Shown here in pieces: positions 10,414-37,182 of a stretch of DNA of 64,000 bases; within the stretch, counting starts at the first letter, position 1; each line of letters opens with the position of its first letter. This DNA comes from Blastocatellia bacterium (GTDB lineage: Bacteria > Acidobacteriota > Blastocatellia > RBC074), in NCBI GenBank assembly GCA_035331565.1, contig DAOLKO010000019.1:67343-131342 (forward strand). Reading direction: 5' to 3'. The position numbers were made by a program, and so were the translations under genes. Under the pieces are notes generated by a model, which did not search any database, was not told the origin of the DNA, and was given only the letters and a program-made list of their open reading frames with translations.

Positions 10414-11694
10414 GTGAGAGTTACATCCAAGACGAACAGCCTGATTAGGCAAATTGTGCTGGTAGTTTTGCTTTCTGCACTTGGAAGCGTATTTGTCAGA
10501 GTTGTTTTCCGACACTACCTTATTCGAACAATAGCGGATCGCCGAATTGTGATGAACCGCGCGGCTGCAATGGCTGCCGTTAACAGATTGCCGCATTCGC
10601 CTCGCGCTTTGTTCCGTCTGGCGGAAGCGGAAATGGCTGAACCGGCATTCAATTCGCAATTGTCCGCAAGCGCGCAAACACACGCCAAGTTGGCGATTCA
10701 AAATTCTCCCTGGGATTATCGTCCATGGAAATTGCTGGCCGCCCTGCAGGAATCTGACGGCAGACCGGATGAGGCGGAAACGTCGCTGCTGGCCGCAGTT
10801 CGATTGACTCCTAACAATGTTGAAGTGAGATGGATGCTGGCCAATCTTTTATTAAGACAGGGAAAGCTGGATGAGTCGTTGAATGAATTCAACTTTACGA
10901 CGAAGGGCCGCCCGGAGCTTTTACCAATTGCTTTTGACCTGCTTTGGCAAGCGTCAAACGGGAAAATGGAACTGTTGAAAACTGTCGCCGGCAATGAACC
11001 TAAATCCCAATTAAGTCTCGTACAATTTTTGGCTGAGCAATCACAAATGGAGATGGCCATCAGTCTCTATCGCAGCATTGACGTGGCGGAAAAGTTGAAA
11101 TCGCCGAGCGCCGCCGCATTCATTTCCTCTCTGATTCAGACACAGCAGTTTTTGACGGCGCGCGACCTTTGGATTGAGACGGTTGGTTCTTTGACAGGAA
11201 ATCGCAGCGCCGATTTGATCTGGAACGGCGGCTTTGAAATTGATTCCCGGAAGGATTTCGATCACTTTGACTGGACGCTCGCTCCCAGTAATTACGCTAG
11301 AATCGGTTTCGATCAAAGCGTCGCCCACGGCGGCGGAAAATCGCTTAAACTGATTTTCGCCGGACGGGACACCACCAGGCTCGAAGGCGAGATTAAACAG
11401 TTGGTCGCGCTCAAACCGAACACGCGCTACCGGCTGGAATGCCAGGTCAGAACCGCTGATTTGCTGACGCCCGAAGGCCCGCGCTTGGCGCTGCTCAGCC
11501 AAAATCAGATTACGACAATTTCCGAACCCGTTGCCGCCGGCACTTCGGAATGGCGGCGATTGGCGGGCGAGTTCATTTCGCCGACGCAGCCGGCGGCGAC
11601 TTACATCACCATCGCCAGACTGCCGCGATTCAGTTATGACGATCCAACGCGCGGAACCATCTGGTTCGATGATTTCAAACTGACAGAGCTATAA
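10414..11694 (+). CDS. membrane-anchored TPR-repeat protein with C-terminal CBM_4_9-like carbohydrate-binding beta-sandwich
   Basis: N-terminal TM, then TPR-like helical repeats (WMLANLLLRQGKLDESL...). The C-terminal ~170 aa has a CBM-like pattern (IWNGGFE...GGGKSLKLIF...IWFDDFKL). It lies immediately upstream of the Wzy-like gene. Confidence 0.65.
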   Translation: MRVTSKTNSLIRQIVLVVLLSALGSVFVRVVFRHYLIRTIADRRIVMNRAAAMAAVNRLPHSPRALFRLAEAEMAEPAFNSQLSASAQTHAKLAIQNSPWDYRPWKLLAALQESDGRPDEAETSLLAAVRLTPNNVEVRWMLANLLLRQGKLDESLNEFNFTTKGRPELLPIAFDLLWQASNGKMELLKTVAGNEPKSQLSLVQFLAEQSQMEMAISLYRSIDVAEKLKSPSAAAFISSLIQTQQFLTARDLWIETVGSLTGNRSADLIWNGGFEIDSRKDFDHFDWTLAPSNYARIGFDQSVAHGGGKSLKLIFAGRDTTRLEGEIKQLVALKPNTRYRLECQVRTADLLTPEGPRLALLSQNQITTISEPVAAGTSEWRRLAGEFISPTQPAATYITIARLPRFSYDDPTRGTIWFDDFKLTEL

Positions 11695-11706: not shown

Positions 11707-13116
11707 TTGGTGCCGAACAAGAATTCAACGCTGAAAAAGACAGGCGAACTTCTGAATGCGTTCATCTCCGCCGGATTGCTGCTGGCAATCGCCTTCACCG
11801 CGCTGGCTTTCGGAACTGTGGAGCCGTGGTCAATTGCGGTGTTCAACTTATTGATCCTTGTGTTGTGTTTGTTCTGGGGAGGGAAATGCCTGATCGAAGG
11901 TCGCCTGACGTTGGTCATCGCTTCCGTCGCCTGGCCGTTGATGGCGCTGATTGGCTTGGCATTTTTACAGACCATCGCGCGCGCCGACGCATCCGGCAAA
12001 TGGTTCGCCATCTCGCTGGACGTTGAAGCGACGCGTCTGACGCTGGAAACTGTCGCCGTCTTGCTGACGGCGTTGCTGCTCTTTTCCACCTTTTTTGCCG
12101 AAGCCGAACGCCTTTACTGGATGAGAAACTTTCTGGTGGTTTTCGGGCTGGCGTTGGCCGTTTTCGGGTTGATTCAAAAGTTCACCTGGAACGGAAAGTA
12201 TTACTGGCTGATCGAATCCAGCGCTCCTGCGGAAGTTCCGCTCGGCCCATTCGTCAATCGCAATCATTTCGCGGGCTATTTGGAAATGATCGCGCCGATT
12301 CCGGTGGCGTTGATTTTGTCGCGGGCGGTGCGCGGTGAGCTTTCCTTCTTTTATGGATTTGCCGCTGCTTTGATGAGCGTGGCGGTGTTCGTTTCGCTTT
12401 CACGTGGCGGAATGATTAGTTTGCTGACCGGATTGTTGTTCGTTGTCGCATTCGGCGTGAAGCCGGCGGCGGAAAGATCAGGAACTCGCAAGCTGTTTGG
12501 AATTTCCCCGCGTTTTGCCGCCGTGGTGTTGATCGTGTTGACGGTCGGTGGCGGCGTCTGGTGGGTTGCCGGAGACGCCGTGATCGAGCGCGCGCAACGC
12601 ACTGATTTAAGCGCACAGGCACGAAGCGGTGCCGGCAAGGAAACCTTCTTTCAAAGCCGTGGCTGGATTTGGCGTGATACGGCGGAAATGATACGGGAAA
12701 ACTGGCTGCTCGGAATTGGGTTGGGCGCTTACGAAACGGCCTATTTTCTTTACGGCAAACGCGACGGCAGTTTGATTGTCAGTCAGGCGCACAACGATTA
12801 TTTACAGATCATGGCTGATTGCGGCATCGTTGGTGGTGGCTTGGCGATTTGGTTCATTGCGGTTTTTTTCAGGGATTTGATGCGTGCGCTCGGTCATCGG
12901 AATGAAATGATGGCCGGGTTGGCGCTGGGTTGCGGAGCAGGCGCGGTGGCGATGCTCGTTCACAGCCTGTTTGATTTCAATTTGCAGTTGCCGTCCAACG
13001 CGTTGTTGTTTCTGGTGTTGACGGCGGTTGTTTCAAATATCGGTTCCGCCGCTGTCGGCGGCAAAGTCGGCCCGGCTCTGATGAATCGGGCGGTGCGCGC
13101 GAGCCTTGCGGCTTGA
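11707..13116 (+). CDS. O-antigen ligase / Wzy_C-family polytopic membrane protein (candidate polysaccharide polymerase or ligase)
   Basis: About 11 TM segments with a large periplasmic loop. It carries the Wzy_C-type motif AHNDYLQIMADCGIVGG and has a TTG/GTG start. Confidence 0.8.
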   Translation: MVPNKNSTLKKTGELLNAFISAGLLLAIAFTALAFGTVEPWSIAVFNLLILVLCLFWGGKCLIEGRLTLVIASVAWPLMALIGLAFLQTIARADASGKWFAISLDVEATRLTLETVAVLLTALLLFSTFFAEAERLYWMRNFLVVFGLALAVFGLIQKFTWNGKYYWLIESSAPAEVPLGPFVNRNHFAGYLEMIAPIPVALILSRAVRGELSFFYGFAAALMSVAVFVSLSRGGMISLLTGLLFVVAFGVKPAAERSGTRKLFGISPRFAAVVLIVLTVGGGVWWVAGDAVIERAQRTDLSAQARSGAGKETFFQSRGWIWRDTAEMIRENWLLGIGLGAYETAYFLYGKRDGSLIVSQAHNDYLQIMADCGIVGGGLAIWFIAVFFRDLMRALGHRNEMMAGLALGCGAGAVAMLVHSLFDFNLQLPSNALLFLVLTAVVSNIGSAAVGGKVGPALMNRAVRASLAA

Positions 13117-13147
13117 GGCGCTCAAGCAATTGATGGAGGGTCTAGTT

Positions 13148-14311
13148 GTGAAAACAAAATCTGTTGCAGCGAAGCAGTTCTTAGGACGATTGTCGGTTTG
13201 GTGTTTGTCTGTTTGCGTGTTGCTGGCGTCATCGGCGTTGGGCCAGAATCCGCCGCCGCGCACCAGCGCGCAAACTCCCGCGCGAACCACTGACACGAGT
13301 GGGGGCGAAACGACCAATCAGGTCAAACCGCGTGTCGGCCCGGATGTGATTATTTCCGCCGATGAAGATTACCAACTCGCGCCCAGCGACGTGATCGAAA
13401 TCATCATTCAGGACGCGCCGGAACTATCGGGAAACTTCCGCATAGGCGCTTCCGGCAGCATTCCCATGCCTTATCTCGGACAACAGAACGTCGCGGGCAA
13501 GACCACGGAGGAAGTTGCCAAAATCATCACGGAAGGACTGAAGGGGCGGTATTTGAAAGACCCCAAAGTTTTTGTCTCCATCACCAGATACAACAGCCGA
13601 ACATTCTTCATTCAAGGCGCGGTCAAATCGCCGGGCGTTTACGTGATTGAAGGCAAGCCGTCGCTGTTCAAGCTGATTACCATCGCCGGCGGGTTACAGG
13701 AAAAGCACGGTTCCATTGCTTACGTTGTTCGCGAAACCAAAGCTAAACCGGAAAAGATCGAGATGCGCGGTCAGACAGCGGACGGCAAGCCGGAGCAGGT
13801 GAGAACGACGCCCGTTTCCGAAGCCGTGGACAATGCCAAAGGATCGAACGCCGGCATGATCGGCGAGACGGAGTATGAACTGTTGCGCGCGCAGATCGGC
13901 GGTTTGATGAAAGGCCGCTTCGATCAAAACGTGCTGATTCAGCCGGGCGATGTCGTATACATTCCTCCGGCGGAAGTTTTTTATGTCGCCGGCGAAGTTC
14001 GCGCGCCAGGGCAGTATCAATTCAAGGAAGGCATGACATTGCGCCAGGCAATCACACTGGCGCAGGGAACTTACTTCAAAGCGAAACTGGACAAAGGCAT
14101 CATCTTTCGCGAAGACCCGTTGAGCGGGAAGTTCAATGAAATCCCGGTCAACATTGCGGAAGTGATGAAGGGCGGAGGAAAAGACGATATGCCGATTTAT
14201 CCCAACGATGTGGTGCTGGTTCCGAACAGCGCGGTCAAGGGAGTGTCGGCGGCGTTGTTAATGGCGATGGCGACGGGGCTTGCGCTGCGCATTCCCATCG
14301 GGGTGCGTTAA
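13148..14311 (+). CDS. wza: polysaccharide export outer-membrane protein Wza (Poly_export + SLBB domains)
   Basis: GTG start at 13148 preceded by GGAGGG at a 7-nt spacing; signal peptide; PES/Poly_export core (GPDVIISADEDYQLAPSDVIEIIIQD), SLBB (DVVYIPPAEVFYVAGEVRAPGQY) and a C-terminal amphipathic helix. The ORF track's start (13106) overlaps the upstream gene. Confidence 0.8.
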   Translation: MKTKSVAAKQFLGRLSVWCLSVCVLLASSALGQNPPPRTSAQTPARTTDTSGGETTNQVKPRVGPDVIISADEDYQLAPSDVIEIIIQDAPELSGNFRIGASGSIPMPYLGQQNVAGKTTEEVAKIITEGLKGRYLKDPKVFVSITRYNSRTFFIQGAVKSPGVYVIEGKPSLFKLITIAGGLQEKHGSIAYVVRETKAKPEKIEMRGQTADGKPEQVRTTPVSEAVDNAKGSNAGMIGETEYELLRAQIGGLMKGRFDQNVLIQPGDVVYIPPAEVFYVAGEVRAPGQYQFKEGMTLRQAITLAQGTYFKAKLDKGIIFREDPLSGKFNEIPVNIAEVMKGGGKDDMPIYPNDVVLVPNSAVKGVSAALLMAMATGLALRIPIGVR

Positions 14312-14382: not shown

Positions 14383-16791
14383 ATGGCAGACGAAAGAACA
14401 GAGCTTGATAAACCATTAACCCCCGAAGAATCAGCCATCATGCGCCCATTCGCCACTCCCCGTTATGGTGGATCGTATGGTTACGGATATGGCCCGGAAC
14501 AAGGACCGGGCATTCACCTGCGCGAAGTTCTGCGCATCATTCGCAAGCGAAAGTGGCTGGTAATGGCGATTGCCGCCGTGGCCACGATTTTGGTGACGGT
14601 CGAAGTTTTCCGCACGCCGTCCGTTTATCGCGCTTCCAACCGCATCGAAGTGGCCAAGGACTCGCCCGTGGTCGTGACATCCAAAGATCAGGTTATCCAA
14701 TTCGAGGATTCCGACAGCCTGAACACCAAAAAAGTGATTTTCAAAAGTCGCCCGCTGCTGGAAGACATCGTGGTGCTTTTGAAGCTGGAACAGGATCCGA
14801 AATTCATCGAAAGCATGCGGAAGAAATCCGTGACTGATGCTCTGCATGAAATCGGGGATCGTTTCTCCGGCAAAGGCGCGGACGAAGAAACCAAACAGTC
14901 AGAGGCGTTGATTGCTTCGCAAACCGTTATTCTGCAAGAGCGCACGCCGGAAGAAAGTCGCCGCCTGGCACCTTTCGTCAACATTCTGCGCAGCAAGCTG
15001 AATGTCGAGACGATGGCGGAAACGAACATTCTGGAAGTTTCCTTCGAGCATACTGACCCCGCGCTGGCCGCCGCCGTCGTCAACACCGCCGCCAAGAATT
15101 TCATTGACCGCACCTTTGAACGGCGGACTTCCAATTTTTCCAGCACCTCGGATTGGCTTGATCGTTCGACGCGCGAGCTGCGGGCGAAGGTTCAACAGGC
15201 CGAGCAGGCCGTGGCCGATTACACCAAGCGCAACGGCATCTTTTCGACCGACGGCAAAGGCAATCTGACGACGGACAAACTCTCCGGCCTACACGCCGAA
15301 GCCTTGAAGGCCGAGATGGATCGTATGCTCAAGCAGTCGCTTTACGAAGAAGTCAAAAATGGTCGCGCTGCGCAATTGCCTGAAGCCTTTTCAGACGCCA
15401 GAACCGGCACGCTCAAACAAAAGCTGGGCGAACTGGAACTGGAGCAGTCGCAGTTGAGCGTCAAATACGGCCCGGAAAATCCGCAGGTCGCCGTCATCGA
15501 ACAAAAAATCAAAGTCCTGAAAGATCAACTGAAGGACAATCAGCGGACGCTGGAAGACAAGTTGAAAGCGGATTATGACCGTTCGGTGCGCGATGAGCGC
15601 GAATTCAAAATCGCGCTGGACGCGGCGAAAGGCGAGGCCGTCCAACAAAATCAGGCGGCGATTCAATTCAGCACGCTGCAAGCCGAACTCGACACCGCGA
15701 AGGCGCTTTACGCCGATTTCCTCAACAAAACCAAGCAGGCCGATTTGCAACTGGCCGAACAGCACAACAACCTGAAGATTGTCGAAACGGCCGAAACTCC
15801 CAAATCGCCGATTGGCCCGCAGCGGTTCCGCACGATTCTGATTGGCTTGCTCGTCAGCTTGATTGCCGGAATGGGTTTGGCGTTCTTCCTCGAATATCTG
15901 GACAACACGGTCAAGAGCGTGGAGGACGTGGAGCGCGTGGCCGCGTTGCCTACGCTGGCAGTGATTCCCGCCATCTCCACCATTTCGCCGCGCGCGCTGG
16001 CGGAAAAGAAAAAGAACAAAGCGGAAGTCAGCCCCAGCACGGAACTCAGTCCGAATTTCGCTTCCGCAGGTTCGGGCGAACACGGAAAGCTGACCAAGCT
16101 GGTCACGCTAGACCAACTTTCCTCCGTGGTCGAAGCCTACCGCATGCTGCGCACTTCGGTGCTGCTGTCCGCCGCCGGTAATCCGCCGAAGGTCATTCTG
16201 TTCACCAGCGGCCAGCCGGGCGAAGGCAAAACCACCACGGCTATCAACACCGCGATTTCGCTCTCGCAGCTTGGCTCTTCCGTGTTGCTGATTGACGCGG
16301 ATTTACGCCGTCCGACCGTGCATCGCGTGTTCAAGATGGGCCAGTCTCAAGGGCTTTCGACCTTCCTCTCGCGGCAGGTGGAAATTGATCCGTTGATTCA
16401 TAAATTATGGGTTCCGAATCTGTCCGTGTTACCCTGTGGCCCGATTCCTCCCAATCCGGCTGAGTTAATCAGTTCGGAGCGAATGAAAAGTCTGTTGAAA
16501 GTGCTGTCCGAAAAATACGATCACATACTGATTGATTCGCCGCCGCTGATTAACGTCACCGATCCGGTAATTCTTTCGACGATGGTGGACGGCACGATTC
16601 TGGTCGTGCAGGCCGGACGTTCGACGCGCGACATAGTGCGCCGCGCCCGTCAGGAACTGGCCAGCGTCGGCGCGAAGATTTTCGGCGTGGTGTTGAACAA
16701 TCTCGACATCAAACGAGAAGGGTACGATTCGTACCTTTCCACCTACGGCAATTACGGTTACGCGGAACGCCGCGAAGCAGGCCGCAGGTAA
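14383..16791 (+). CDS. wzc: polysaccharide co-polymerase / tyrosine autokinase Wzc (paralog 1)
   Basis: Two TM segments flank a Wzz/GumC-like periplasmic coiled-coil domain. The cytoplasmic BY-kinase has Walker A (GQPGEGKTT), Walker A' (LLIDADLRRP), Walker B (ILIDSPPL) and a C-terminal Tyr cluster (YDSYLSTYGNYGY). Confidence 0.9.
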   Translation: MADERTELDKPLTPEESAIMRPFATPRYGGSYGYGYGPEQGPGIHLREVLRIIRKRKWLVMAIAAVATILVTVEVFRTPSVYRASNRIEVAKDSPVVVTSKDQVIQFEDSDSLNTKKVIFKSRPLLEDIVVLLKLEQDPKFIESMRKKSVTDALHEIGDRFSGKGADEETKQSEALIASQTVILQERTPEESRRLAPFVNILRSKLNVETMAETNILEVSFEHTDPALAAAVVNTAAKNFIDRTFERRTSNFSSTSDWLDRSTRELRAKVQQAEQAVADYTKRNGIFSTDGKGNLTTDKLSGLHAEALKAEMDRMLKQSLYEEVKNGRAAQLPEAFSDARTGTLKQKLGELELEQSQLSVKYGPENPQVAVIEQKIKVLKDQLKDNQRTLEDKLKADYDRSVRDEREFKIALDAAKGEAVQQNQAAIQFSTLQAELDTAKALYADFLNKTKQADLQLAEQHNNLKIVETAETPKSPIGPQRFRTILIGLLVSLIAGMGLAFFLEYLDNTVKSVEDVERVAALPTLAVIPAISTISPRALAEKKKNKAEVSPSTELSPNFASAGSGEHGKLTKLVTLDQLSSVVEAYRMLRTSVLLSAAGNPPKVILFTSGQPGEGKTTTAINTAISLSQLGSSVLLIDADLRRPTVHRVFKMGQSQGLSTFLSRQVEIDPLIHKLWVPNLSVLPCGPIPPNPAELISSERMKSLLKVLSEKYDHILIDSPPLINVTDPVILSTMVDGTILVVQAGRSTRDIVRRARQELASVGAKIFGVVLNNLDIKREGYDSYLSTYGNYGYAERREAGRR

Positions 16792-16794
16792 AAT

Positions 16795-16872
16795 ATGATG
16801 GGTGAAGATGAAGGCAGAAGGATGAAAGCGGCACAATCGCTATTTCATTCTTCATCCCTCATCTTTCATCAT
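16795..16872 (+). promoter_or_regulatory. imperfect GA-rich/CT-rich inverted repeat (GATGAAG...CTTCATC arms, ~33 nt each) between the wzc paralogs
   Basis: Left arm atgatgggtgaagatgaaggcagaaggatgaaag, loop cggcacaatcg, right arm ctatttcattcttcatccctcatctttcatcat. About 75-80% of arm positions are complementary. It starts 4 nt after the wzc-1 stop. Confidence 0.35.
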
Positions 16873-16949
16873 TTCTAAAAACTACACACAATTTCTTTGA
16901 CAATTCCGTTGCTGCGTCCCTTGCCCCGGCGCAGTTGTAAGGTTCCGTC

Positions 16950-19334
16950 ATGGCTGAAGAAAAAAATAACTCTGAACTCCCTCAATTGGCGGAAGAGGCG
17001 CTGCTGCTGCGACCGAGCGGCGTGTCCAAGCCGAATTCCTTTGAACAACTGGCTTATAACTATGGCGCGGGTGGCGCGAAAGACGGCTTCGATCCGCGCG
17101 GTTTGTGGCGCAAAATCCGCAAACGGAAATGGCTGGTGGCGGCGATTGTCCTGATTGCCACGATCATTGTTTCCATCGAATCCTTCCGCACCAAATCCCT
17201 TTACCTGGCGACCACCAAAGTCGCCATCAACAAACAAAGCACGATTGTCAGAACAGGCGATCTGGTACTTGAATCCAACGACAGCGAGCGTGTCAAAACG
17301 GAAATACTAATGCTCAGCACGCATCCGCTATTGGAAGAAGTCATCGTCCGGCTCAAGCTCGACCAGAACCCGCAATTTCTGGACATCAAAAACCGCAAGT
17401 CCGTTGTTGAAGCGGTCAAAACAATTTCAGCCAAACTCAAAGGCGAACCCAATACAGGCAATTCCATTCCGCCGCCGCTCAATCTGTCGCCGGCGCAAGA
17501 CGCTCCGCGCTCAACGGCGGAAAGCGCGCGCCTGACGCCTTACGTCGAACTGCTCAAGGAAAACCTTTTCGTTGACCAGATTCCCGAAACGCGCGCGCTG
17601 GCCATCAATTATTCCCACACCAATCCGGTCATTGCCCAAGCCGTCGCCAACGGCGTGGCGCAGGTGTTTGTGGATTTCAGCTTTCAAAACAAAATCTCTA
17701 AATATTCCAGTTCCTTCAACTGGCTGGATCGCACCACGCGCGGTTTGCGCGCGCAGATGGAACAAGCCGAACGCGCGCTGGCCGATTACAGCAGTTCGCA
17801 CAACTTCTTTTCGCCGGACGAAAAGCAAAGCCTGACGGTCAGCAAACTGGCGACGCTGTACGGACAGGTGCTGAAGGCCGAGACGGATCGCATTCTGAAA
17901 CAATCGCTTTATGAAGAAGTGCGCCGCGACCGCGTGGCGCAATTGCCTGAAGCCTTTTCCGATCCGCGCATCGTGCAGTGGCAAAACGAGATGGGTAAGC
18001 TGCAACTCAAAGCTTCGGAACTCAACTCGCGGTTCGGCCCGGAAAATCCGAAAGTTCTTGAAACACAGCAGCAGATCAAGGAACTGGACGGTCTGGTTCT
18101 GGCCAGCACCAGACAACTGGCAGAGCGGTTGAAAGCGGATTATGACCGCGCCGTGCGCGATGAAGCCTTGATTCGCGAATCACTGGAACAAGCCCGCAAC
18201 GAAGCCATACAGCAGAATCAAGCCGCGATTGAATTGAACGTACTCAAACAAAACTCCGACACGGCGCGCGCGCTTTACAACGACTTTTTGCAGAAAACCA
18301 ATCAGGCGAACATACAGGTCAATGAACAGCAGAACGATCTGAAAGTCATTGATCCGGCGCGCGTCCCGAATGCGCCCGTCGGGCCGAAGCGATTGCGCGC
18401 AATTCTGATCGCCATCTTTCTTAGTCTGGTTGCCGGCATCGGGTTGACGTTCTTGCTGGAATACCTGGACAACACGGTCAAAAACGTCGAGGACGTGGCG
18501 CGCGCCACGCAGTTGCCCACGTTGGCGCTGATTCCAGCGATGGAAGGCAACACCGTTCGCACGTTGAATAAAAAGAAAAGCATCCAAAACAAACCCGTGG
18601 CTGGACTCGCTCCGCGCAGCATGCAGACAGGCACCAACGGTCTGGCCACGCTCGACGGCATGTCTTCAGTCGTCGAAGCCTACAGAATGCTGCGCACTTC
18701 CGTGCTGCTTTCCAGCGCAGGCAATCCGCCCAAAATCATTCTCGTCACCAGCAGCCAGCCTGGCGAAGGCAAAACCACGACGGCGGTCAACACAGCCATT
18801 TCACTGACTCAACTCGGCGCGAGTGTTTTGCTGATTGACGCTGACCTGCGCCGCCCTGCGGTTCACAAAGCCTTCAAACTTTCCCACGCGCGCGGCTTGT
18901 CGAATTATCTTTCCGGCAACGCTGCGCTCAGCGATTTGATCGTTGATTTGCCGATTCCGAATCTTTCGTTGTTGGCTTGTGGCCCGATTCCGCCCAACCC
19001 GGCGGAACTGGTCAGCTCTGAACGGATGAAAGAAATGTTGCGCGTACTCAGCCAGCTTTACGATCACATCATCGTGGATTCGCCGCCGCTGATTAACGTC
19101 ACCGACCCGATCATTCTTTCCACCATCGTTGACGGCACGATTCTGGTAGTGCAGGCCAGCCGTTCGACGCGCGATATGCTGCGGCGTTCGCGGCAGGAAC
19201 TGGCCGGCGTGGGTGCGAAAGTTTTCGGTGTGGTTCTGAACAACGTGGACATCAAACGCGACGGCTACGACGAGTATTACTATTACCGTTATTACTCGAA
19301 TTACGGTCAGGATGGGAAGCAAGCCGAATCTTGA
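16950..19334 (+). CDS. wzc: polysaccharide co-polymerase / tyrosine autokinase Wzc (paralog 2)
   Basis: Same architecture as paralog 1. The kinase core is about 85% identical to paralog 1 (SSVVEAYRMLRTSVLLSSAGNPPKIILVTSSQPGEGKTTTAVNTAISL...), the periplasmic domain is diverged, and the C-terminal Tyr cluster is richer (YDEYYYYRYYSNYG). Confidence 0.9.
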   Translation: MAEEKNNSELPQLAEEALLLRPSGVSKPNSFEQLAYNYGAGGAKDGFDPRGLWRKIRKRKWLVAAIVLIATIIVSIESFRTKSLYLATTKVAINKQSTIVRTGDLVLESNDSERVKTEILMLSTHPLLEEVIVRLKLDQNPQFLDIKNRKSVVEAVKTISAKLKGEPNTGNSIPPPLNLSPAQDAPRSTAESARLTPYVELLKENLFVDQIPETRALAINYSHTNPVIAQAVANGVAQVFVDFSFQNKISKYSSSFNWLDRTTRGLRAQMEQAERALADYSSSHNFFSPDEKQSLTVSKLATLYGQVLKAETDRILKQSLYEEVRRDRVAQLPEAFSDPRIVQWQNEMGKLQLKASELNSRFGPENPKVLETQQQIKELDGLVLASTRQLAERLKADYDRAVRDEALIRESLEQARNEAIQQNQAAIELNVLKQNSDTARALYNDFLQKTNQANIQVNEQQNDLKVIDPARVPNAPVGPKRLRAILIAIFLSLVAGIGLTFLLEYLDNTVKNVEDVARATQLPTLALIPAMEGNTVRTLNKKKSIQNKPVAGLAPRSMQTGTNGLATLDGMSSVVEAYRMLRTSVLLSSAGNPPKIILVTSSQPGEGKTTTAVNTAISLTQLGASVLLIDADLRRPAVHKAFKLSHARGLSNYLSGNAALSDLIVDLPIPNLSLLACGPIPPNPAELVSSERMKEMLRVLSQLYDHIIVDSPPLINVTDPIILSTIVDGTILVVQASRSTRDMLRRSRQELAGVGAKVFGVVLNNVDIKRDGYDEYYYYRYYSNYGQDGKQAES

Positions 19335-19540: not shown

Positions 19541-21046
19541 GTGTCTCGTTCTATGCCAATCAGTCGCGATGAGCAGCGCCGCAGCGCCGCCTGGGACGTT
19601 CTTGCCGGGCCGCGCAATTACCTGACGCTGGTTTTCACGCAGTTCATCAGTTCGTTGTCGGCACTGGCGACGGTGTGGCTGCTGACGCGGTTGCTGGGCG
19701 CAAGCGGCTATGGACAGGTTGCCGCACTGATTGCGGCAGCCTTTCTGATCGGCACCGCTGCGTTGAATTGGAGCGCCATGTCGCTGGCCCGCATAGGCTG
19801 CGAAGAGTTCGTCGAAACCGGTCGCCTGACCAACACCTTTTGGACGCGGACCTATCTGCTGGCACTGAACTGGCTGCTCGTTCTGGCGACCGCGCCGTTT
19901 TGGCAGCCGTTGTTGGCCAACCGGCTACACCTGACGCGCGAGACGCAGTTTCTGCTTTTCGCTTATCTGGCGGCGCTTTCCTTGTTCGGCCACGTGCAAC
20001 ACGCGCTGATGGGCGCGAAGCTGCAATCGCTGTCGGGACGATTGCAGGCCGCCGAACGCTTGCTGATTCTGACCGGTGCGGCGCTGCTGTTTTGGAAAGG
20101 CGGATCGGTTGCCGGCGTCATTGCTGTTCAAGCGGTCGGTTCGCTTTGCGCATCGCTGGTCGGATTGTGGCGACTGCGCCGGTTGATTGGCCGTCCGGTA
20201 TTGCTGAAGGCCGTTTTGTTACGCCGTGTTTTGCTGTTTTCTCTGCCGCTCATTCCGCAATCTCTGATCGGTTATTTTTCCACGAATTATCTGGATGCCT
20301 GGTTCATTCAGCACTACCTTTCGGCGGCTGACCTGGGCGTTTATTCGATTGCTTATCAACTGGCGGGAACAGTCATGCAGTTGCCTGTGCTGGTCAGTTC
20401 ACTGTTGCTGCCGATGTTCACCACACTCGAAGTCCGGCAGGGAAATCGGCAGTTGGATCGTTACATGCGAGAACTGCTGCCGGTGTTGAGTTTGGGTTGG
20501 GCGTTGGCCGGGACACTGGTGACTGGATTGACAGTCTGGCTATTGCCGTTTGTCTTCGGCAAGCAGTTTGCGGCGGCAGCGCCTTTGATGTGGCCGCTGA
20601 TGGCGGCCAGTGTGATTATCGGCCCGATGTCTATGGGTTACGGCCCGTTGCTTAACGCCAAGTCCGCCACGATGGCCATCGCCGCCGGCGCGTTGGCCGG
20701 AGCCGCAACCAACGTCTTGCTCAATTTCTTGCTGATTCCGCGTTGCGGTTTGCTGGGTTGTGCCTGGGCGACGGCTTTTTCCTATCTGGTGAATTTGCTG
20801 GTCGGCGCGTTTCTGCTCTGGCGCTTGCACGGATTGCGCGGCGGCTGGGCGCTGGATGCCGTACTGCCGCTGATGGGCGGCGCGGCGTTGGCCGGAATTA
20901 CTGAACGACACGAACTTCCGCTGTTATTGACGTTGGTACTGATTGCGGTGCTGGCGATTTCACGGCGCGAGGATTTGTGGCGCGAAATCCAACGGCTGAG
21001 TCGCAGGTTTGCGAGTAAGCCTGTTGCGAAAGCGATGGTTGTTTGA
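19541..21046 (+). CDS. wzx: Wzx-type oligosaccharide flippase (MOP/MATE-like polysaccharide biosynthesis protein)
   Basis: About 14 predicted TM segments in the MOP flippase layout. An alternative ATG start at 19553 is possible. Confidence 0.8.
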   Translation: MSRSMPISRDEQRRSAAWDVLAGPRNYLTLVFTQFISSLSALATVWLLTRLLGASGYGQVAALIAAAFLIGTAALNWSAMSLARIGCEEFVETGRLTNTFWTRTYLLALNWLLVLATAPFWQPLLANRLHLTRETQFLLFAYLAALSLFGHVQHALMGAKLQSLSGRLQAAERLLILTGAALLFWKGGSVAGVIAVQAVGSLCASLVGLWRLRRLIGRPVLLKAVLLRRVLLFSLPLIPQSLIGYFSTNYLDAWFIQHYLSAADLGVYSIAYQLAGTVMQLPVLVSSLLLPMFTTLEVRQGNRQLDRYMRELLPVLSLGWALAGTLVTGLTVWLLPFVFGKQFAAAAPLMWPLMAASVIIGPMSMGYGPLLNAKSATMAIAAGALAGAATNVLLNFLLIPRCGLLGCAWATAFSYLVNLLVGAFLLWRLHGLRGGWALDAVLPLMGGAALAGITERHELPLLLTLVLIAVLAISRREDLWREIQRLSRRFASKPVAKAMVV

Positions 21047-23912: not shown

Positions 23913-25171
23913 CGCACACACTTTATCTTTGTTATTTCGGCGTGCGCGAACCGCTGGTGCAAACGCAGGTGCTGCCTTACCTGCGCGAACTGGCGGCGGG
24001 CGGGTTGCGCGTCAGCCTGCTCACCTTTGAAGCGCAAATGAACGACCGTTGGAACGCCGAAACCATCGCCGCCACGCGAGCGCAGTTGCAGCAACAAGGA
24101 ATTAGTTGGCATTTGTTGCCGTATCACAAACGGCCTTCGCTGCCGGCCACACTCTATGACATCTGGTGCGGCGCGAAATTCGCGCACGCGCTGGCACAGC
24201 GCGAGAACGTGGAAGTGCTGCACGCCCGCGCGCACATCGCCGCCGCCATGGGGGCGCTGGCCAAATGGGCGATGGATAAAAAACGGCTGAAACTGGTGTT
24301 CGACATTCGCGGCTTTCTTCCTGAAGAGTACACCGATGCCGGAATCTGGCCGAAAAACGGCTGGCTTTATCGCGGCGTGAAGCGCGTTGAAAGTCGGTTG
24401 CTGGCGGCGGCGGACGCTTTTGTGGTGCTGACGAACAAGGCGCACGAGATTTTATTTGCCGGCGGTAAAGACACGCGGCCCGTTGAAGTCATTCCTTGCT
24501 GCGTGGACTGGCAACGTTTTCATCATCCGCAAAGCGGCGGAAGGGAAGCGCGACGCCGTGCGCTGGGTTTCGAGGGACGCCGCGTGCTGGTTTACGTAGG
24601 CTCTTTCGACGGTTGGTATCTGAGCGAAGAAATGCTGGATTTCTATGCCGAAGCTCACCGCCGCAACCCGCGCAGCTTCACGCTGATTCTGACGCAGCGC
24701 GGTGCAGAGCAAGTGCGCAGCCGATTGTCCGCCAAAGGCATAACGGCGGCGGACTGTCTGGTCACTTCCGTCGCACCTGCCGAAGTCGCCGAATACCTTT
24801 ATGCCGCCGATGTCGCGCTGTCGTTCATCAAACCTTGTTATTCCAAACAATCTTCTTCGCCGACGAAAATCGCCGAATATCTGGCCGCTGGACTGCCCGT
24901 CATCAGCAACGCAGGCATAGGCGATTTGGATGAGTTGATTCGCGGTGAGCGCGTCGGCGCGATTCTGCAAGACTTCACGCCGGAAGCTTACGCCCGCGCG
25001 CTGTCGGAGATCGAAGCTTTGGGCGAGCCGGAAGTCGTCCGCGTACATTGCCAAACCGTCGCGCGTGAATGCTTCGATTTGCAGAATGTCGGCGGGCCAC
25101 GTTACCGGCGGCTTTACGAACGATTGCTGAACGGAGAAGGTCATTCAGAGTTCACGCTTCAGCGTGTCTGA
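23909..25171 (+). CDS. glycosyltransferase family 4
   Basis: AAGGAG RBS with the ATG overlapping the GT2 stop (ATGA). It has a GT-B fold with the E-x7-E-like C-terminal motif (SSSPTKIAEYLAAGLPVISN). Confidence 0.8.
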   Translation: MTHTLYLCYFGVREPLVQTQVLPYLRELAAGGLRVSLLTFEAQMNDRWNAETIAATRAQLQQQGISWHLLPYHKRPSLPATLYDIWCGAKFAHALAQRENVEVLHARAHIAAAMGALAKWAMDKKRLKLVFDIRGFLPEEYTDAGIWPKNGWLYRGVKRVESRLLAAADAFVVLTNKAHEILFAGGKDTRPVEVIPCCVDWQRFHHPQSGGREARRRALGFEGRRVLVYVGSFDGWYLSEEMLDFYAEAHRRNPRSFTLILTQRGAEQVRSRLSAKGITAADCLVTSVAPAEVAEYLYAADVALSFIKPCYSKQSSSPTKIAEYLAAGLPVISNAGIGDLDELIRGERVGAILQDFTPEAYARALSEIEALGEPEVVRVHCQTVARECFDLQNVGGPRYRRLYERLLNGEGHSEFTLQRV

Positions 25172-25182
25172 ACGAAAACACG

Positions 25183-26517
25183 ATGCCGAGAGATACCGAT
25201 CTGCCATTTGCGTTGGTGTTGTTGGTTTGCCTGGCGGGGCTGGGATGGCTGTTACTGTCTTTCACCCGGCAGCACCGCGAAACCTTGCGCACGCAGGCTT
25301 ACATTTTCCTGGCGGCCTTTGTCGCGCGCTTTGTGTTGTCGGTGGTGATTTACGAATTCGATCTGGTGCGCGTGCTGGGCGATGAAGACGGCAGCGGTTG
25401 GTACAGCGGCGTGGTGCTGTTGGATTTCTGGAAGCAGCGGCATTTGGATTTGTTCGATTTGCCGGTGGCGTTGGCGCAGGCGTTTCAGGAGCAAAACCGC
25501 GGGTACGCTTATTTGCTCGGCGGAATGTTTTATTTGACGGACGCGCCCGCGCGATTGCCCGCCGCCACGCTCAATTGTTTTTTCGGCGCGTTGACCTGCG
25601 TGTTCGCTTATCGAATTGCGCTGAGTTTGTTTTCGCCCTGGGTGGCTGTGCGCGTGGGTTGGGCGGCGTGCTTCTTTCCGTCTTTGCTGGTTTGGTCGGC
25701 GCAAACGGTCAAAGAGCCTGTCGTGATTTTGCTGGAAACCGTAGCGCTTTATGCCTGCGTGCATTTGAAACTGTCCGGCTTCACAGTGCGCTACATTTTG
25801 CTGTGCGGGCTGGCGATCATCTTGTTGTTGCCGTTTCGATTTTACGCGGCGTATCTGGCCGCCGCCGCCGCGATGCTGGCGCTGGCGATGCCTGCGCTGA
25901 GCAAGCAAAAGTCTTCGGTTATCGCCGGATTGGCGATTGCCGGATTGTTGATTCCGCTGGCGATTTCTTCCGGCGTGTTGGCGCGGAACGAAGCGCAGTT
26001 CGAGCGGTTCGATGTCAATTACATTCGTACTTTCAGACGAGACATTGCTTACAAACAAGGCTCCGGTGTGACCGGTAACTACGATTTGCAATCGCCGACG
26101 GGCTTTTTGCTGGGCGTGGCGGTGGGCGGCGCGCATTTGTTGCTTGCGCCGTTTCCGTGGCAGTTGGGCGGAGCGAGTTTGCGAATGTTGCTGACGCTGC
26201 CGGAAATGCTGGTTTGGTGGTGGTTGTTTTTCTGGGGCATCGTGCCGGGCTTCTGGCTGGCTGTGCGCCGTCGCTTCGGAGAGATTCAGCCCTTGCTGAT
26301 TTTCATTTTTGGATTAGGGCTGCTCTACAGTTTGTTGTTCGGAAACGTGGGATTGATCGTTCGTCAGCGCGGGCAGTTGCTGCCCTGGCTGTTGATCTTT
26401 GCGATGGTCGGATTGGAACAGGCGATGTTGCGCCGCCGGCAAAAACAGCTCGGACGGACAGGCCGACCGCTTACGGGACTCGACGGCGAAATTCAGGCGA
26501 TGGGAAGCAGGGGATAA
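25183..26517 (+). CDS. polytopic membrane protein (~12 TM), candidate second polymerase or membrane modification enzyme
   Basis: ATG 11 nt after the GT4 stop; hydrophobic throughout, with a large loop (QFERFDVNYIRTFRRDIAYKQGSGVTGNYDLQSP). I recognise no catalytic motif. Confidence 0.6.
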   Translation: MPRDTDLPFALVLLVCLAGLGWLLLSFTRQHRETLRTQAYIFLAAFVARFVLSVVIYEFDLVRVLGDEDGSGWYSGVVLLDFWKQRHLDLFDLPVALAQAFQEQNRGYAYLLGGMFYLTDAPARLPAATLNCFFGALTCVFAYRIALSLFSPWVAVRVGWAACFFPSLLVWSAQTVKEPVVILLETVALYACVHLKLSGFTVRYILLCGLAIILLLPFRFYAAYLAAAAAMLALAMPALSKQKSSVIAGLAIAGLLIPLAISSGVLARNEAQFERFDVNYIRTFRRDIAYKQGSGVTGNYDLQSPTGFLLGVAVGGAHLLLAPFPWQLGGASLRMLLTLPEMLVWWWLFFWGIVPGFWLAVRRRFGEIQPLLIFIFGLGLLYSLLFGNVGLIVRQRGQLLPWLLIFAMVGLEQAMLRRRQKQLGRTGRPLTGLDGEIQAMGSRG

Positions 26518-30993: not shown

Positions 30994-32877
30994 ATGTGTG
31001 GAATCGCAGGCATTGTGACGGAAAGAGGCGGCATCAACGAAGCGCGCGTGCAGCCGATGATTGACGCATTGGCGCATCGCGGGCCGGACGCCTGGGGGGC
31101 TTGGTCGGACGGCGTTTGCGCGCTGGGCCACCGTCGTTTGTCCATTATTGATTTGTCCGAAGCCGGGCGGCAGCCGATGACGACCGAAGACGGCGGCATT
31201 CAAATCAGCTTCAACGGCGAAATCTATAACTTCCAAAGTTTGCGCGCGGAGTTGGAAAGTCTGGGCCATCGCTTCCGCACGCGCACGGACACGGAAGTTA
31301 TTCTGCGCGCCTACGAACAATGGGACGTGAACTGTCTGTCCAAACTGCGCGGAATGTTCGCCTTTGGTTTATGGGATCAATGGCGACGGCGACTGTTTCT
31401 GGCGCGCGACCGCGTAGGCAAAAAACCGCTCTTTTACGGAACCTTTGCCGGGCAATTCGTCTTTGCTTCGGAGTTGCAAGGTTTGCTGGCGCACGAAGCC
31501 GTCACACGCGAAGTTTACCCGCCCGCGATTGACGCTTATCTCAGTTATGGTTACGTGCCGCCGCCGCACACGGCTTTTCGCGGCATTTTCAAATTGCCGC
31601 CCGCGCATTACTTGACGCTCGAAGTTAAACCGGAAGAGTGGCGGCAGCGCGTCGAACGGTATTGGTCGCTGGATTACGAACCAAAATTGAAACTCGACGA
31701 GCATGAGGTCGGCGAGGCTTTACGCGAAAAGCTGAGCGAGGCCGTGCGGCTGCGAATGATTGCCGATGTTCCGCTCGGCGCATTTCTGTCAGGCGGAATT
31801 GATTCCAGCATCGTCGTCGGGTTGATGGCGCAACAGTCCACACAGCCGGTCAAGACCTTCTCCATCGGTTTTAAGGAAGCCGAATACAACGAACTCGAAC
31901 ACGCGCGGCGCATTGCAGACAAATGGAACACTGAGCATCACGAATTTGTCGTCGAACCGAACGCGCTGGAAGTCATCCCCAAACTGGTGCGGCATTACGG
32001 CGAGCCATACGCGGATTCATCAGCCATTCCGACGTTTTACGTTTCGCAGTTGACGCGCGAACACGTAACCGTGGCGCTCAACGGCGACGGCGGCGACGAG
32101 AGCTTCGCCGGCTACGAACGTTATTTGGGCAATCGTCTGGCCGAACGTTTCCAGGGAATTCCCGGTACAAAGCTGGCGGCGAAAACTTTGGGGCGATTGC
32201 TGCCGGATTCAGTTGATCCCAAAGACCGCGTGCGCAACGTGCGCCGCTTTCTAAATGTGATGACGCAGCCGATGCCGCAACGTTACGCGCGCTGGCTGAC
32301 GTATTTCACCGCCGATGACAAGGCTTCGCTTTACCGCCCGGAATTTCGCGCGCAACTCAACGGTGCGGCGCGCGCGGACTGGTTGGCCGATTTGGTGGCC
32401 GAACGGCGAGAGCTTGACCCGGTGGACGCGGCGATGTCGGTGGACATTGATTCGTATCTGCCTTTCGATTTGCTGGTCAAAGTGGACATCGCGGCGATGG
32501 CCAACAGTTTGGAAGCGCGTTCGCCGCTGCTCGATCACCACGTGATGGAATTCGCCGCGCAGTTGCCGGCCTCACTCAAATTGCGCGGCAAAAATTTGAA
32601 GCACTTGCTCAAGACGGAGTTCAGCGATTTGTTGCCGCCGGAAAACGTCAACCGGCGCAAGGCAGGGTTTGCCTTGCCCGTCGGCCAATGGTTTCGCGGG
32701 CCGTTGCGCGAACTGTTGTGCGACGCGCTGTTGTCGAATGCGAAATCGCGCCCGTATTTTCAGGCTCCGCAAGTCGCGCGCTTGGTGGACGACCATCTCA
32801 ACAGCCGCGCCGATCACTCCTTTCAGCTTTGGGATTTGATGATGCTGGAGCTTTGGCACAGGGAGTTTGGTTTATGA
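30994..32877 (+). CDS. asnB: asparagine synthase (glutamine-hydrolysing), AsnB-family amidotransferase
   Basis: MCGIAGIV N-terminal nucleophile Cys2, the glutaminase domain, and the PP-loop SGGIDSS in the synthetase domain. Confidence 0.9.
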   Translation: MCGIAGIVTERGGINEARVQPMIDALAHRGPDAWGAWSDGVCALGHRRLSIIDLSEAGRQPMTTEDGGIQISFNGEIYNFQSLRAELESLGHRFRTRTDTEVILRAYEQWDVNCLSKLRGMFAFGLWDQWRRRLFLARDRVGKKPLFYGTFAGQFVFASELQGLLAHEAVTREVYPPAIDAYLSYGYVPPPHTAFRGIFKLPPAHYLTLEVKPEEWRQRVERYWSLDYEPKLKLDEHEVGEALREKLSEAVRLRMIADVPLGAFLSGGIDSSIVVGLMAQQSTQPVKTFSIGFKEAEYNELEHARRIADKWNTEHHEFVVEPNALEVIPKLVRHYGEPYADSSAIPTFYVSQLTREHVTVALNGDGGDESFAGYERYLGNRLAERFQGIPGTKLAAKTLGRLLPDSVDPKDRVRNVRRFLNVMTQPMPQRYARWLTYFTADDKASLYRPEFRAQLNGAARADWLADLVAERRELDPVDAAMSVDIDSYLPFDLLVKVDIAAMANSLEARSPLLDHHVMEFAAQLPASLKLRGKNLKHLLKTEFSDLLPPENVNRRKAGFALPVGQWFRGPLRELLCDALLSNAKSRPYFQAPQVARLVDDHLNSRADHSFQLWDLMMLELWHREFGL

Positions 32878-35318: not shown

Positions 35319-37070
35319 ATGAAGCCTGCCGCAAGTGTAATCATTACCGCGGTGCTGAGCTTGATCTTTACATTTCTTGTTCGATCCGGCGCGCACCGAT
35401 TAGGAGTAGTCGCTGCTCCACGCAAAGACCGTTGGCATCAGAAGCCGACGGCTTTGATGGGCGGCATAGCGATTTATTTCTCCTTCCTTCTCGGCTCTTT
35501 TCTTTTCGCCCGTTCAATAAGTTGTTTCTACCCCATCCTGATTGCCGGCACGATTCTGTTCATCACCGGCGTGGTGGACGATCTGATTCAATTGAAGCCT
35601 TACATCAAACTGGTCATGCAGATTGTGGCTTCGTCCGTGATCGTCTATTGCGGCTTGTATCTGCATTGGACGGGCATTGAAGCGGCAGATTCCCTCATCA
35701 CAGTGTTCTGGCTTGTCGGCCTGACCAACGCCGTCAATCTGCTGGACAATATGGACGGTCTGGCCGGAGGCATTTCCGTCATCGCCAGTTTCTTTCTGGC
35801 GATCACCTTCTTGCTGAACGGGCAAATGGCCGAAGCCGTTCTGCCGTTGGTGCTGGCGGGCGCAGTGTTGGGTTTTCTGTATTTCAATTTCAATCCGGCT
35901 TCGATCTTTATGGGTGATTGCGGCTCGATGTTGCTGGGTTTGTCGTTGGGCGGAATCGCTTTGCTGAACGACATGGGACGGACGCGCAATCTGGCTGCGG
36001 TTTTTTCGACGCCGGTACTGATTCTGCTGATTCCCATCTTCGACACCTGCGTCGTCACCGTCACGCGCAAACTATCCGGTCGCCCTGTTTCGCAGGGCGG
36101 ACGCGACCACACGTCTCATCGTTTGGTGGCGCTGGGCATGTCCGAACGCCGCGCCGTGCTGACACTCTATTTGCTGGCGGCAGTTTCTGGAACGCTGGCC
36201 TTGCTCGTCCGGCAAATGCACATCGGCGCGAATCTGTTGCTGACTTCAGGCTTCGCGTTGACCATTCTGTTCATCGGTTTGTACCTGGGCAAAGTGCGCG
36301 TTCACGAAGGCGGCAACCCCGAAAGCAATACGCTGGTGAACGTCTTCGCCAGCCTGTCTCCGCGCCGTCGCATTTTTGAAATCCTGCTCGACCTTTGTTT
36401 GATAGTGCTGGCTTATTACGGCGCTTACCTGTTGCGCTTTGAACACGGCCTGCCGGACGAACAGTTGAAGGTTTTCATTCGCACGCTGCCGGTGGTGATT
36501 GCAGTTCAGATTTTATTGTTTCTGTTTGGCGGAGTTTATCGCGGCATCTGGCGATACGCGGGCGTGGATGATCTGGTCGTCATCGCCAAATCAGTGTTCA
36601 TAGGCGCGCTCATCAGCGGCGTAGGCGTGATGGCGCTCCACGGATTTCACGGCCCTTCGCGCGCGGTCTTTATTCTGGACGCCTTGCTGCTCTTGTTGTT
36701 TGTCGGAGCCAGCCGCCTGTCGTTCCGTTTGCTGGGGGCATTGTTCGTCGGCAAGCAAACTGCGCCTCCGAATTCAACGCCCGTCTTGATTTACGGCGCG
36801 GGCGACGGCGGAGAAATTCTGATTCGCGAATTGCTCAACAATCCCGCGCATCGCTATCAACCCGTCGGTTTCATTGACGACGACCGAAACAAAACCGGCC
36901 TGCTCATTCGCGGCTATCGCATCTTCAGCCGCGAAGATCTGCCCGAACTCATCAGCGAACACGGCGTCAGCGAAGTGCTTGTTTCCAGCTTCAAAGTCCC
37001 TGAAAGCAAGATCAACGATTTGCGCGGACTGGGCATCGGCTTCAAACGCCTGCGAATTCAACTTGAATAG
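35319..37070 (+). CDS. polyprenyl-phosphate HexNAc-1-phosphate transferase (WecA/WbpL/MraY-like) fused to a C-terminal CoA-binding-like Rossmann domain
   Basis: N-terminal ~330 aa are 10-11 TM with VNLLDNMDGLAGG and DxxD motifs, as in the MraY/WecA family. The C-terminal ~200 aa (PVLIYGAGDGGEILIRELLNN...YQPVGFIDDD) resemble the N-terminal domain of WbaP/PglF-type enzymes. Confidence 0.8.
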   Translation: MKPAASVIITAVLSLIFTFLVRSGAHRLGVVAAPRKDRWHQKPTALMGGIAIYFSFLLGSFLFARSISCFYPILIAGTILFITGVVDDLIQLKPYIKLVMQIVASSVIVYCGLYLHWTGIEAADSLITVFWLVGLTNAVNLLDNMDGLAGGISVIASFFLAITFLLNGQMAEAVLPLVLAGAVLGFLYFNFNPASIFMGDCGSMLLGLSLGGIALLNDMGRTRNLAAVFSTPVLILLIPIFDTCVVTVTRKLSGRPVSQGGRDHTSHRLVALGMSERRAVLTLYLLAAVSGTLALLVRQMHIGANLLLTSGFALTILFIGLYLGKVRVHEGGNPESNTLVNVFASLSPRRRIFEILLDLCLIVLAYYGAYLLRFEHGLPDEQLKVFIRTLPVVIAVQILLFLFGGVYRGIWRYAGVDDLVVIAKSVFIGALISGVGVMALHGFHGPSRAVFILDALLLLLFVGASRLSFRLLGALFVGKQTAPPNSTPVLIYGAGDGGEILIRELLNNPAHRYQPVGFIDDDRNKTGLLIRGYRIFSREDLPELISEHGVSEVLVSSFKVPESKINDLRGLGIGFKRLRIQLE

Positions 37071-37182
37071 CGAGTTGTTGCCCGGCCCGCCGATTCGCCC
37101 TCAGCCGCGAAACTCTTGCCCAATCAACTTTCCGCATAGAGAATGCGCCCGCTTTTCAATCTTCAACCTGCGGGAGCATCTC

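Follow-up and report, generated by a model that had tools for sequence, protein, structure and literature searches.

A conserved tandem of two Wzc-type tyrosine autokinase genes behind a single Wza gene in Blastocatellia

Two Wzc-type genes in tandem

The stretch of DNA analysed here (the window, 64,000 nucleotides) comes from an uncultured member of the Blastocatellia (Acidobacteriota), described as a soil acidobacterium. It contains an exopolysaccharide (EPS) locus in which two genes of the Wzc type, called A and B below, follow a single Wza gene. Copy A (positions 14383–16791) encodes 802 amino acids and is the last gene of a conserved export module. Copy B (16950–19334) encodes 794 amino acids, and both ORFs lie on the forward strand with a gap of 158 bp between them. 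An earlier note on this DNA had described two full-length Wzc proteins encoded head-to-tail, each with two transmembrane (TM) segments, a periplasmic domain and a tyrosine kinase domain of the bacterial (BY-kinase) type. This description held: the open reading frames (ORFs) run exactly between these positions, and the domains and motifs are complete in both.

The two proteins align end to end, with 52% identity over 787 aligned residues (BLASTP). From its N terminus, A consists of a cytoplasmic Tyr-Gly repeat, TM1, a periplasmic Wzz/GNVR domain, TM2, the BY-kinase domain and a Tyr tail. The hydrophobic TM segments are at residues ~57–78 and 481–507 in A, and at 58–81 and 480–507 in B. In A, the Pfam domains Wzz (PF02706, 33.1 bits) and GNVR (PF13807, 43.6 bits) both scored over their cutoffs; in B, GNVR did so (42.6 bits), and Wzz, at 24.7 bits, fell slightly under its gathering score of 25.5. 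Both proteins contain a P-loop NTPase Pfam domain, and both passed the cutoff of 108 bits for TIGR01007, the polysaccharide-biosynthesis tyrosine autokinase domain (A 192.8 bits, B 204.7 bits). The Walker A sequence is GQPGEGKT in A and SQPGEGKT in B. The Walker A' motif VLLIDADLR (DxDxR type) and the Walker B motif I(L/I)(I/V)DSPP (DxxP type) are present in both copies, as is the oligomerisation motif ExxRxxR, which reads EAYRMLR and lies at the start of the kinase domain (residue 584 of A, 576 of B).

Across the kinase core (A residues 577–780) the copies are 75.5% identical, less than the ~85% given in the note; values of 80–82% were reached only in the best 50-residue windows. The periplasmic domains do differ, as had been stated, being 44% identical. 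The tails had been credited with five Tyr in A and nine in B, including a YYYYRYY run. Within the last 30 residues A indeed has five, spaced Tyr (GYDSYLSTYGNYGY), and the run is present in the dense tail of B (GYDEYYYYRYYSNY), which holds eight Tyr and not nine.

AlphaFold2 (AF2) monomer models of both copies were built on alignments of 72–73 sequences (mean pLDDT ~72, pTM 0.38–0.39). Both models contained the TM helices and long periplasmic helices at 226–284 and 367–458, and the order of secondary-structure elements was alike in the two, with one extra helix of A in a variable insert. The best PDB matches of both models in Foldseek were full-length Wzc chains (7NHR and 9R64; E = 1e-27 to 1e-28, ~800 aligned columns). 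The kinase domains gave TM-scores of 0.7–0.87 to CapB, VpsO and Wzc; the global TM-score was only ~0.3, as these monomer models misplace the domains relative to one another.

By domains, motifs, TM segments and fold, and for A also by synteny, the two products are complete proteins of the polysaccharide co-polymerase (PCP) class PCP-2a, with intact and competent-looking catalytic motifs, and are ordinary members of the PCP-2a/BY-kinase family. Scores against the NCBIfam equivalogs of Escherichia coli Wzc and Etk (NF008568 and NF007350) were 173 and 190 bits for A, and 161 and 185 bits for B. As the cutoffs of 1068 and 1248 bits are far from reached, A and B are not orthologues of E. coli Wzc or Etk.

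Motifs and tyrosine tails across orthologues

The comparison of motifs and tails covered 110 proteins of the A clade and 95 of the B clade. In both, conservation of Walker A, A' and B and of ExxRxxR was 90% or more, and ExxRxxR and its neighbouring residues are identical in A and B. The possibility raised earlier, that the Walker motifs of one copy are inactivated in relatives, was not borne out.

The tails fell into clade-specific types. That of A is near-invariant, REGYDSYLSTYGNYGY, with exactly five Tyr in 88 of the 110 proteins; a basal A subgroup (L015–L017 and L021; related loci are given by such L numbers throughout) has another, sparser tail. B tails are of the type GYD(E/D)YYY(Y/H/Q)RYYSNY and contain 5–9 Tyr, nearly all of them 6–9. 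Because the unlinked Wzc paralogues of Blastocatellia also carry a dense, YYYYRYY-type tail, the B tail is of the ancestral type and the A tail derived. Proteins of the A clade have in addition an N-terminal cytoplasmic Tyr-Gly repeat, RPFATPR..GSYGYGYG(YG)NE (window 14455–14500, A residues ~25–40), which the B clade does not have. The repeat resembles the YG pattern of the C-terminal tail of A and could be a second cluster of phospho-acceptors.

Nine positions carry different fixed residues in the two clades, among them the first position of Walker A (G in A, S in B), and none of the nine fell in a known interface or another recognised functional motif. We considered whether such differences might insulate two rings from one another, and with nine sites only they were uninformative on this point.

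Phylogeny and selection

Protein searches with A and B returned matches solely among metagenome proteins of Acidobacteriota/Blastocatellia. Orthologues of A extended down to ~64% identity, with a more distant subgroup at 54–59%; B had a 100% match in an NCBI Blastocatellia metagenome-assembled genome (MAG) and orthologues down to ~55%. For many matches of A and of B the longest contig had the same length, a hint that the two genes are located together. Related loci were collected by a pattern scan of species-representative genomes, confined to close sequence patterns. This gave 80 loci, all of which were screened for Wzc-like ORFs and for synteny with the window, and 91 Wzc-like proteins from these loci were used for a neighbour-joining tree with 100 bootstraps.

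In the full-length tree the A clade and the B clade were each supported at 100, and A+B was separated from all other Blastocatellia Wzc paralogues at 98. The B subtree largely copied the A subtree: L016 was basal, L007 grouped with L011, L009 with the pair L008 and L043, L001 with L031, and the window with L072. Since all three clades are supported and the subtrees are largely congruent, the pair arose once, earlier than the split of these lineages, and was then co-inherited. On this phylogeny A and B go back to a PCP-2a gene that was duplicated in tandem long ago, where a conserved Blastocatellia export module has its 3' end, so that the conserved duplication the earlier note had asked about is found across relatives; a transient or recent duplication is ruled out. 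The trees also rule out an import of B from another locus together with the variable glycan region, as the B tree follows that of A and the A+B clade stands at 98%.

Trees of single domains resolved different parts of this history. With the periplasmic domain alone, A and B were again supported at 100 each and their sisterhood at 15; with the kinase domain alone, A+B was supported at 81, the A clade at 5 and the B clade at 4, so that the copies were not separable. Gene conversion was examined as a cause of the kinase identity and ruled out. The synonymous divergence (dS) between the A and B kinase domains is 1.16, the A–B kinase identity within genomes (70–78%) equals that between genomes, and the A kinase is similarly close to unlinked Blastocatellia Wzc paralogues (mean identity 69%, maximum 77%). 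Given this closeness to unlinked paralogues, the combination of kinases that are alike with periplasmic domains that differ is a general constraint of the family and not specific to the pair.

The ratio of nonsynonymous to synonymous divergence (dN/dS) of orthologous pairs was 0.03–0.12 for A and 0.05–0.17 for B; both genes are under purifying selection. Together with the motifs kept intact in orthologues, this rules out that either copy is a pseudokinase or a decaying gene. For the same pairs of genomes, kinase identity was 89–95% between A orthologues and 74–80% between B orthologues. Evolution of the pair is therefore asymmetric, A being conservative and the kinase of B faster.

Some of the MAGs with loci orthologous to those of Blastocatellia are labelled Heliomicrobium, Heliobacteriaceae or Clostridia (L002, L006, L009, L010, L023, L027, L041, L062, L063, L066, L072 and L074). 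Judged by these sequences, the NCBI organism labels look wrong.

Distribution of the two copies among related loci

The upstream module, HlyD-orf206-TPR-Wzy_C-Wza, was syntenic in all loci of the A/B locus family, and a Wza gene, of the outer membrane polysaccharide export (OPX) family, lay directly upstream of Wzc in all related loci with enough upstream sequence. A followed by B was found in 13 related loci besides the window (L001, L007, L008, L009, L011, L016, L027, L031, L043, L060, L072, L081 and L083). A alone was found in nine loci with enough downstream sequence, namely a clade of L002, L003, L005, L010, L013 and L030, together with L019, L015 and L021. Three otherwise syntenic loci (L057, L067 and L082) had B alone. 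No remnants of the missing copy were present in A-only or B-only loci, and tblastn found none of B in the A-only loci. No second Wzc was seen nearby in any of 50 other Blastocatellia Wzc loci, 35 of which are flanked on either side by 3 kb of sequence or more.

The loci share a flanking framework, Wza-A-[B]-X-GT4-GNAT-DegT (GT4, glycosyltransferase family 4), in which the gene designated X comes next after B where the pair is in tandem, and next after A where A stands alone. The versions of X behind B and behind A are 71% identical. As X and the same GT4-GNAT-DegT genes follow with or without B, B behaves as a clean insertion/deletion polymorphism. In the window X is absent and a Wzx gene follows B. 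X itself encodes a conserved, family-less protein of ~320 amino acids (MKTPVALIIFNRPD...EDDC...; for example L031 15037–16017 and L003 12517–13467) with homologues in ~20 loci, and is probably a GT-A-like enzyme.

The simplest history that fits the tree starts from an ancestral pair, with B lost at least three times and A at least once. Since the same module is followed by A alone in some loci and by B alone in others, neither copy is indispensable. The note had also asked whether a copy is absent from close relatives, as expected of a transient duplication; B is indeed cleanly missing from some fairly close relatives (L019 and the clade of L002, L003, L005, L010, L013 and L030), and A from the three syntenic B-only loci, and the duplication is nevertheless not transient.

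In the sample of A-only loci, neither Wzx nor Wzm/Wzt genes were detected downstream; one or the other is present in tandem and B-only loci. In L081 (10460–17878) and L082 (10629–13761), genes of a Wzm/Wzt-type ABC transporter (ABC2_membrane, ABC_tran and Wzt_C) lie directly behind the Wza-Wzc(PCP-2a) module, an unusual mixture in which genes for ABC-transporter-dependent assembly are combined with export genes of the Wzc/Wza kind. In L060 (7361–9906, a long-read MAG) the A-type ORF covers only residues 322–802 and B is intact; a frameshift, an assembly error or beginning decay of A could account for this.

The spacer between A and B

Two features occupy the 158-bp spacer of the window. A long imperfect stem-loop, resembling a terminator or an mRNA 3'-end structure in its minimum free energy fold, begins 4 nt past the stop codon of A (16795–16872, forward strand). 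The first 90 nt past this stop codon gave z = −6.5 in the window and a mean z of −3.6 over 21 tandem and A-only loci, with 13 of the 21 below −2; the mean for the 90 nt past the B stop codon was −0.4. The hairpin is found behind A in tandem and A-only loci alike, and its sequence is unconserved even between the window and L072, the A proteins of which are 99% identical. That its position is kept while its sequence varies suggests that selection acts on the structure, which has the look of a terminator or a 3'-end stabiliser closing the transcription unit of the module. No other copy occurs in the window, which disposes of a repeated palindromic element.

Behind the hairpin lies a conserved block of 26 nt, AAACTACACACAAnnnCTTTGACAAT (16879–16904, forward strand), which contains a −35-like hexamer, TTGACA, and is ~45 nt upstream of the ATG of B. 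It is unique in the window, where none is expected by chance. The block recurs at the same position in L001 (9205–9228), L031 (12502–12525) and L072 (7797–7820), and is invariant in these four loci between the variable hairpin and the start of B. The dS of flanking genes between the loci with the block is 1.0–1.6, and in the more distant of these loci the synonymous sites of the flanking genes are saturated. Because it is more conserved than these sites, the block is under constraint. We read it as a putative promoter or operator of B, and it might also be an element of the 5' untranslated region.

The spacing of A and B is typically 90–440 bp; it is below 40 bp in L043 and L060, and in L016, which among the tandem loci is the most basal, a 1.3-kb insertion (12452–13719) parts the two genes. 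Junctions inside the module are overlapping or 71 bp long. A search of the spacers against Rfam found no known RNA family, and the B–Wzx spacer had no significant structure. The earlier note had placed both genes in one operon. With a strong hairpin and a conserved promoter-like block between them this is doubtful.

Surroundings of the pair

All genes of the EPS locus named here lie on the forward strand. The conserved module includes a gene for an RND/HlyD-type adaptor (starting at 7986), and a small secreted protein is encoded from 9621. They are followed by the TPR (tetratricopeptide repeat) protein of the module (10414–11694; assigned by domains and synteny), a Wzy_C (O-antigen ligase/polymerase-like) membrane protein of the module with ~10 TM segments (11707–13116) and, directly upstream of A, the Wza/OPX protein (13106–14311), which has a Poly_export domain, two SLBB domains and a hydrophobic C-terminal segment. 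The first gene past B encodes a Wzx-type flippase (Polysacc_synt, 19541–21046) and opens a variable glycan-assembly region that extends to ~37070. Past Wzx this region encodes several GT4 and GT2 glycosyltransferases, methyltransferases, a carbamoyltransferase, an AsnB-type amidotransferase and an epimerase, as well as a family-less protein of 482 amino acids with ~10 hydrophobic segments (25069–26517), a candidate second Wzy-type polymerase. A WecA/MraY-type initiating transferase starts at 35319. The window as a whole holds one Wza, one Wzx and two Wzy-like candidates; no second Wza was found in it.

The AsnB-type amidotransferase (30994–32877) scored 665 bits against the XrtA/PEP-CTERM-system amidotransferase model, the cutoff of which is 817, and the TPR and Wza proteins gave sub-threshold matches to PEP-CTERM-system families. 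These matches hint at a relationship to exosortase-type EPS loci. An ORF at 36874–40377 (forward) encodes a protein of 1167 amino acids with DUF7133 and HEAT repeats; it overlaps the end of the initiating transferase ORF and opens with a TTG start, and its real start is probably later. Shortly downstream of the EPS locus, 40595–43735 (forward) encodes a bacterial Roco-type protein of 1046 amino acids with the order LRR, Roc GTPase, COR-A and COR-B. Two Hanks-type Ser/Thr protein kinases are encoded on the reverse strand (50665–53610 and 62286–63890), one with a GAF domain and one with a C-terminal TPR.

Interpretation of the tandem pair

The earlier note had left a choice between a hetero-oligomeric ring and two chain-length modalities or products served by a single Wza. 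We favour, with a probability of roughly 0.55, two individually competent and separately expressed Wzc variants that share one Wza and so provide two regulatory or chain-length modes; the single-copy loci, the hairpin and the conserved block speak for two modalities and against an obligate hetero-ring. Separate expression is suggested by the hairpin behind A, the conserved block ahead of B and the spacer of 90–440 bp in most tandem loci, and individual sufficiency by the A-only and B-only loci, which share the same framework without remnants of the other copy. Each copy would form its own homo-oligomeric ring, and either ring would dock to the single Wza. A would be made together with the export module; B would have a signal of its own and be made together with the glycan-assembly genes or in advance of them. 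The rings would differ in phospho-regulation, A having the fixed, derived tail of five Tyr and the N-terminal Tyr-Gly repeat, and B the ancestral dense tail of 6–9 Tyr; they would differ also in their periplasmic co-polymerase domains. The outcome would be two regulatory or chain-length modes through one channel, by analogy with paired Wzz proteins or PssP/PssP2. Two modal lengths of one polymer find indirect support in the single Wza and single Wzx, the divergence of the periplasmic domains and the fact that either copy can be dispensed with.

Several observations weigh against this interpretation. Few losses are on record, and one clade makes up most of the A-only loci. In several loci the hairpin lacks a clear U-tract, so that read-through and co-transcription of A and B are possible; no −10 hexamer matching TTGACA was recognised, and the block is conserved among the closest relatives only. 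With nine clade-fixed differences only, no clear specialisation is seen outside the tails and N termini. Mixed rings are physically plausible, the oligomerisation motif being identical in A and B. No canonical signature of a Wzb-type low-molecular-weight protein tyrosine phosphatase was found in the window, where PHP-type phosphatases were not specifically searched for.

Trans-phosphorylation between neighbouring subunits of the Wzc octamer is well established (structures 7NHR and 3LA6), and it underlies an alternative in which A and B would co-assemble, for example as an alternating octamer, and phosphorylate each other's tails, forming one composite regulator on one Wza. The two copies have in common the ExxRxxR motif and most residues of the kinase surface, their predicted secondary-structure topology is nearly identical, and the adjacent genes have been retained for long as a pair, with only one Wza in the window. 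We nevertheless consider such a ring unlikely. The interface motifs are equally common to unlinked paralogues, so that their conservation is not specific to the pairing of A with B; A-only and B-only loci behind the same module show that neither partner is required; and the genes are separated by a hairpin and an upstream element, without translational coupling. Because of the single-copy lineages and this lack of coupling, an obligate hetero-ring is disfavoured, and facultative mixed rings are possible. A more specific version, in which lineages that keep the pair would build regulated, cross-phosphorylating mixed rings and the separately controlled B would titrate phosphorylation capacity to set polymer length or export rate, seems quite unlikely. 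To our knowledge, no heteromeric BY-kinase switch of this kind has been described for any Wzx/Wzy system.

The copies might instead serve two products, A acting with the Wzy_C protein of the module on one polymer and B with the downstream genes (Wzx and the candidate polymerase at 25069) on another, with Wza as the single exit. B does sit at the boundary with the variable glycan region, and two further observations point weakly in the same direction: the window has two Wzy-like membrane proteins for one Wzx and one Wza, and Wzx or Wzm/Wzt genes accompany tandem and B-only loci and were undetected in the A-only sample. However, that sample is phylogenetically narrow, the 482-amino-acid protein is itself only a putative polymerase, the phylogeny of B follows that of A and not the shuffled gene content downstream, and the same X-GT4-GNAT-DegT block stands behind B in tandem loci and behind A in A-only loci. 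We regard two products as rather improbable. Largely redundant duplicates, the second copy giving dosage or robustness only and either copy being lost at random, would be in keeping with the reciprocal losses and with the very few clade-fixed substitutions. This is very unlikely, since the pair persists down to ~55–58% identity with saturated dS and strong purifying selection on both genes, the tail types are stably different between the clades, the kinase domains evolve at asymmetric rates, and each gene has its own flanking regulatory features.

Separately expressed variants sharing one Wza thus remain the reading that we prefer. In the export of capsule and EPS by the Wzx/Wzy-dependent route, Wzc is seen as the master regulator, and mechanistic models at present assume one homo-octamer for each Wza channel. 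A lineage-wide, selectively maintained Wzc pair behind a single Wza, with Tyr tails that differ systematically and with natural loci that have either copy alone, offers a comparative system in which the contributions of tail pattern and periplasmic domain could be separated, and in which it could be asked whether different Wzc rings share one Wza or compete for it. It also bears on how EPS production is tuned in soil Acidobacteriota, which are abundant and poorly studied.

Comparison with known systems

A and B resemble E. coli Wzc of the Wzc/Wza system (group 1 capsule and colanic acid; structures 7NHR and 9R62–9R6B) in having a pair of TM helices, a periplasmic domain that is helical and, at the C terminus, a P-loop tyrosine autokinase. 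The Walker A, A' and B motifs, ExxRxxR and a Tyr tail are likewise shared, the predicted fold is the same and an OPX gene is adjacent. They differ from it in being only ~17–19% identical over the full length and, in the alignment, in lacking an internal regulatory Tyr where E. coli has RKGY. The locus differs too, with two tandem Wzc copies in place of one and no Wzb gene found in the window.

Two paralogues that give two modal chain lengths with one polymerase are familiar from the paired Wzz proteins (PCP-1), such as Wzz1/Wzz2 of Pseudomonas aeruginosa and WzzST/FepE of Salmonella. These PCP-1 proteins have no kinase domain, act without coupling to Wza and are encoded by unlinked genes.

In Rhizobium leguminosarum, two PCP-family proteins, PssP and PssP2, influence one Wzx/Wzy-dependent EPS; PssP is listed among the interactors of PssP2, and loss of PssP2 shifts the chain-length distribution (PMC4182512). 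The gene pssP2 lies in Pss-II, apart from pssP in Pss-I, and they are not tandem sister paralogues. In the window, by comparison, each copy is a full PCP-2a protein that has its kinase motifs intact and a Tyr tail.

A second protein of the BY-kinase family also partners a PCP within one pathway in the pairs EcpK-EpsV and HfsB-HfsA, in which a BY-pseudokinase without Walker motifs or Tyr tail acts as a scaffold for a PCP-2 protein (PMC12004946). Unlike pseudokinases of the EcpK/HfsB type, A and B keep every catalytic motif in ~100 orthologues each.

A search of the literature found no report of tandem or duplicated Wzc genes in one locus, which, as coverage was incomplete, is weak evidence of novelty. 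The known mechanism is unchanged by the pair, which on present evidence does not amount to a new one and may reflect ordinary subfunctionalisation. Its nearest precedents are unlinked PCP pairs and BY-pseudokinase partners, and its unusual part, as far as the sequences tell, is a conserved tandem of two catalytically intact-looking Wzc copies behind one Wza.

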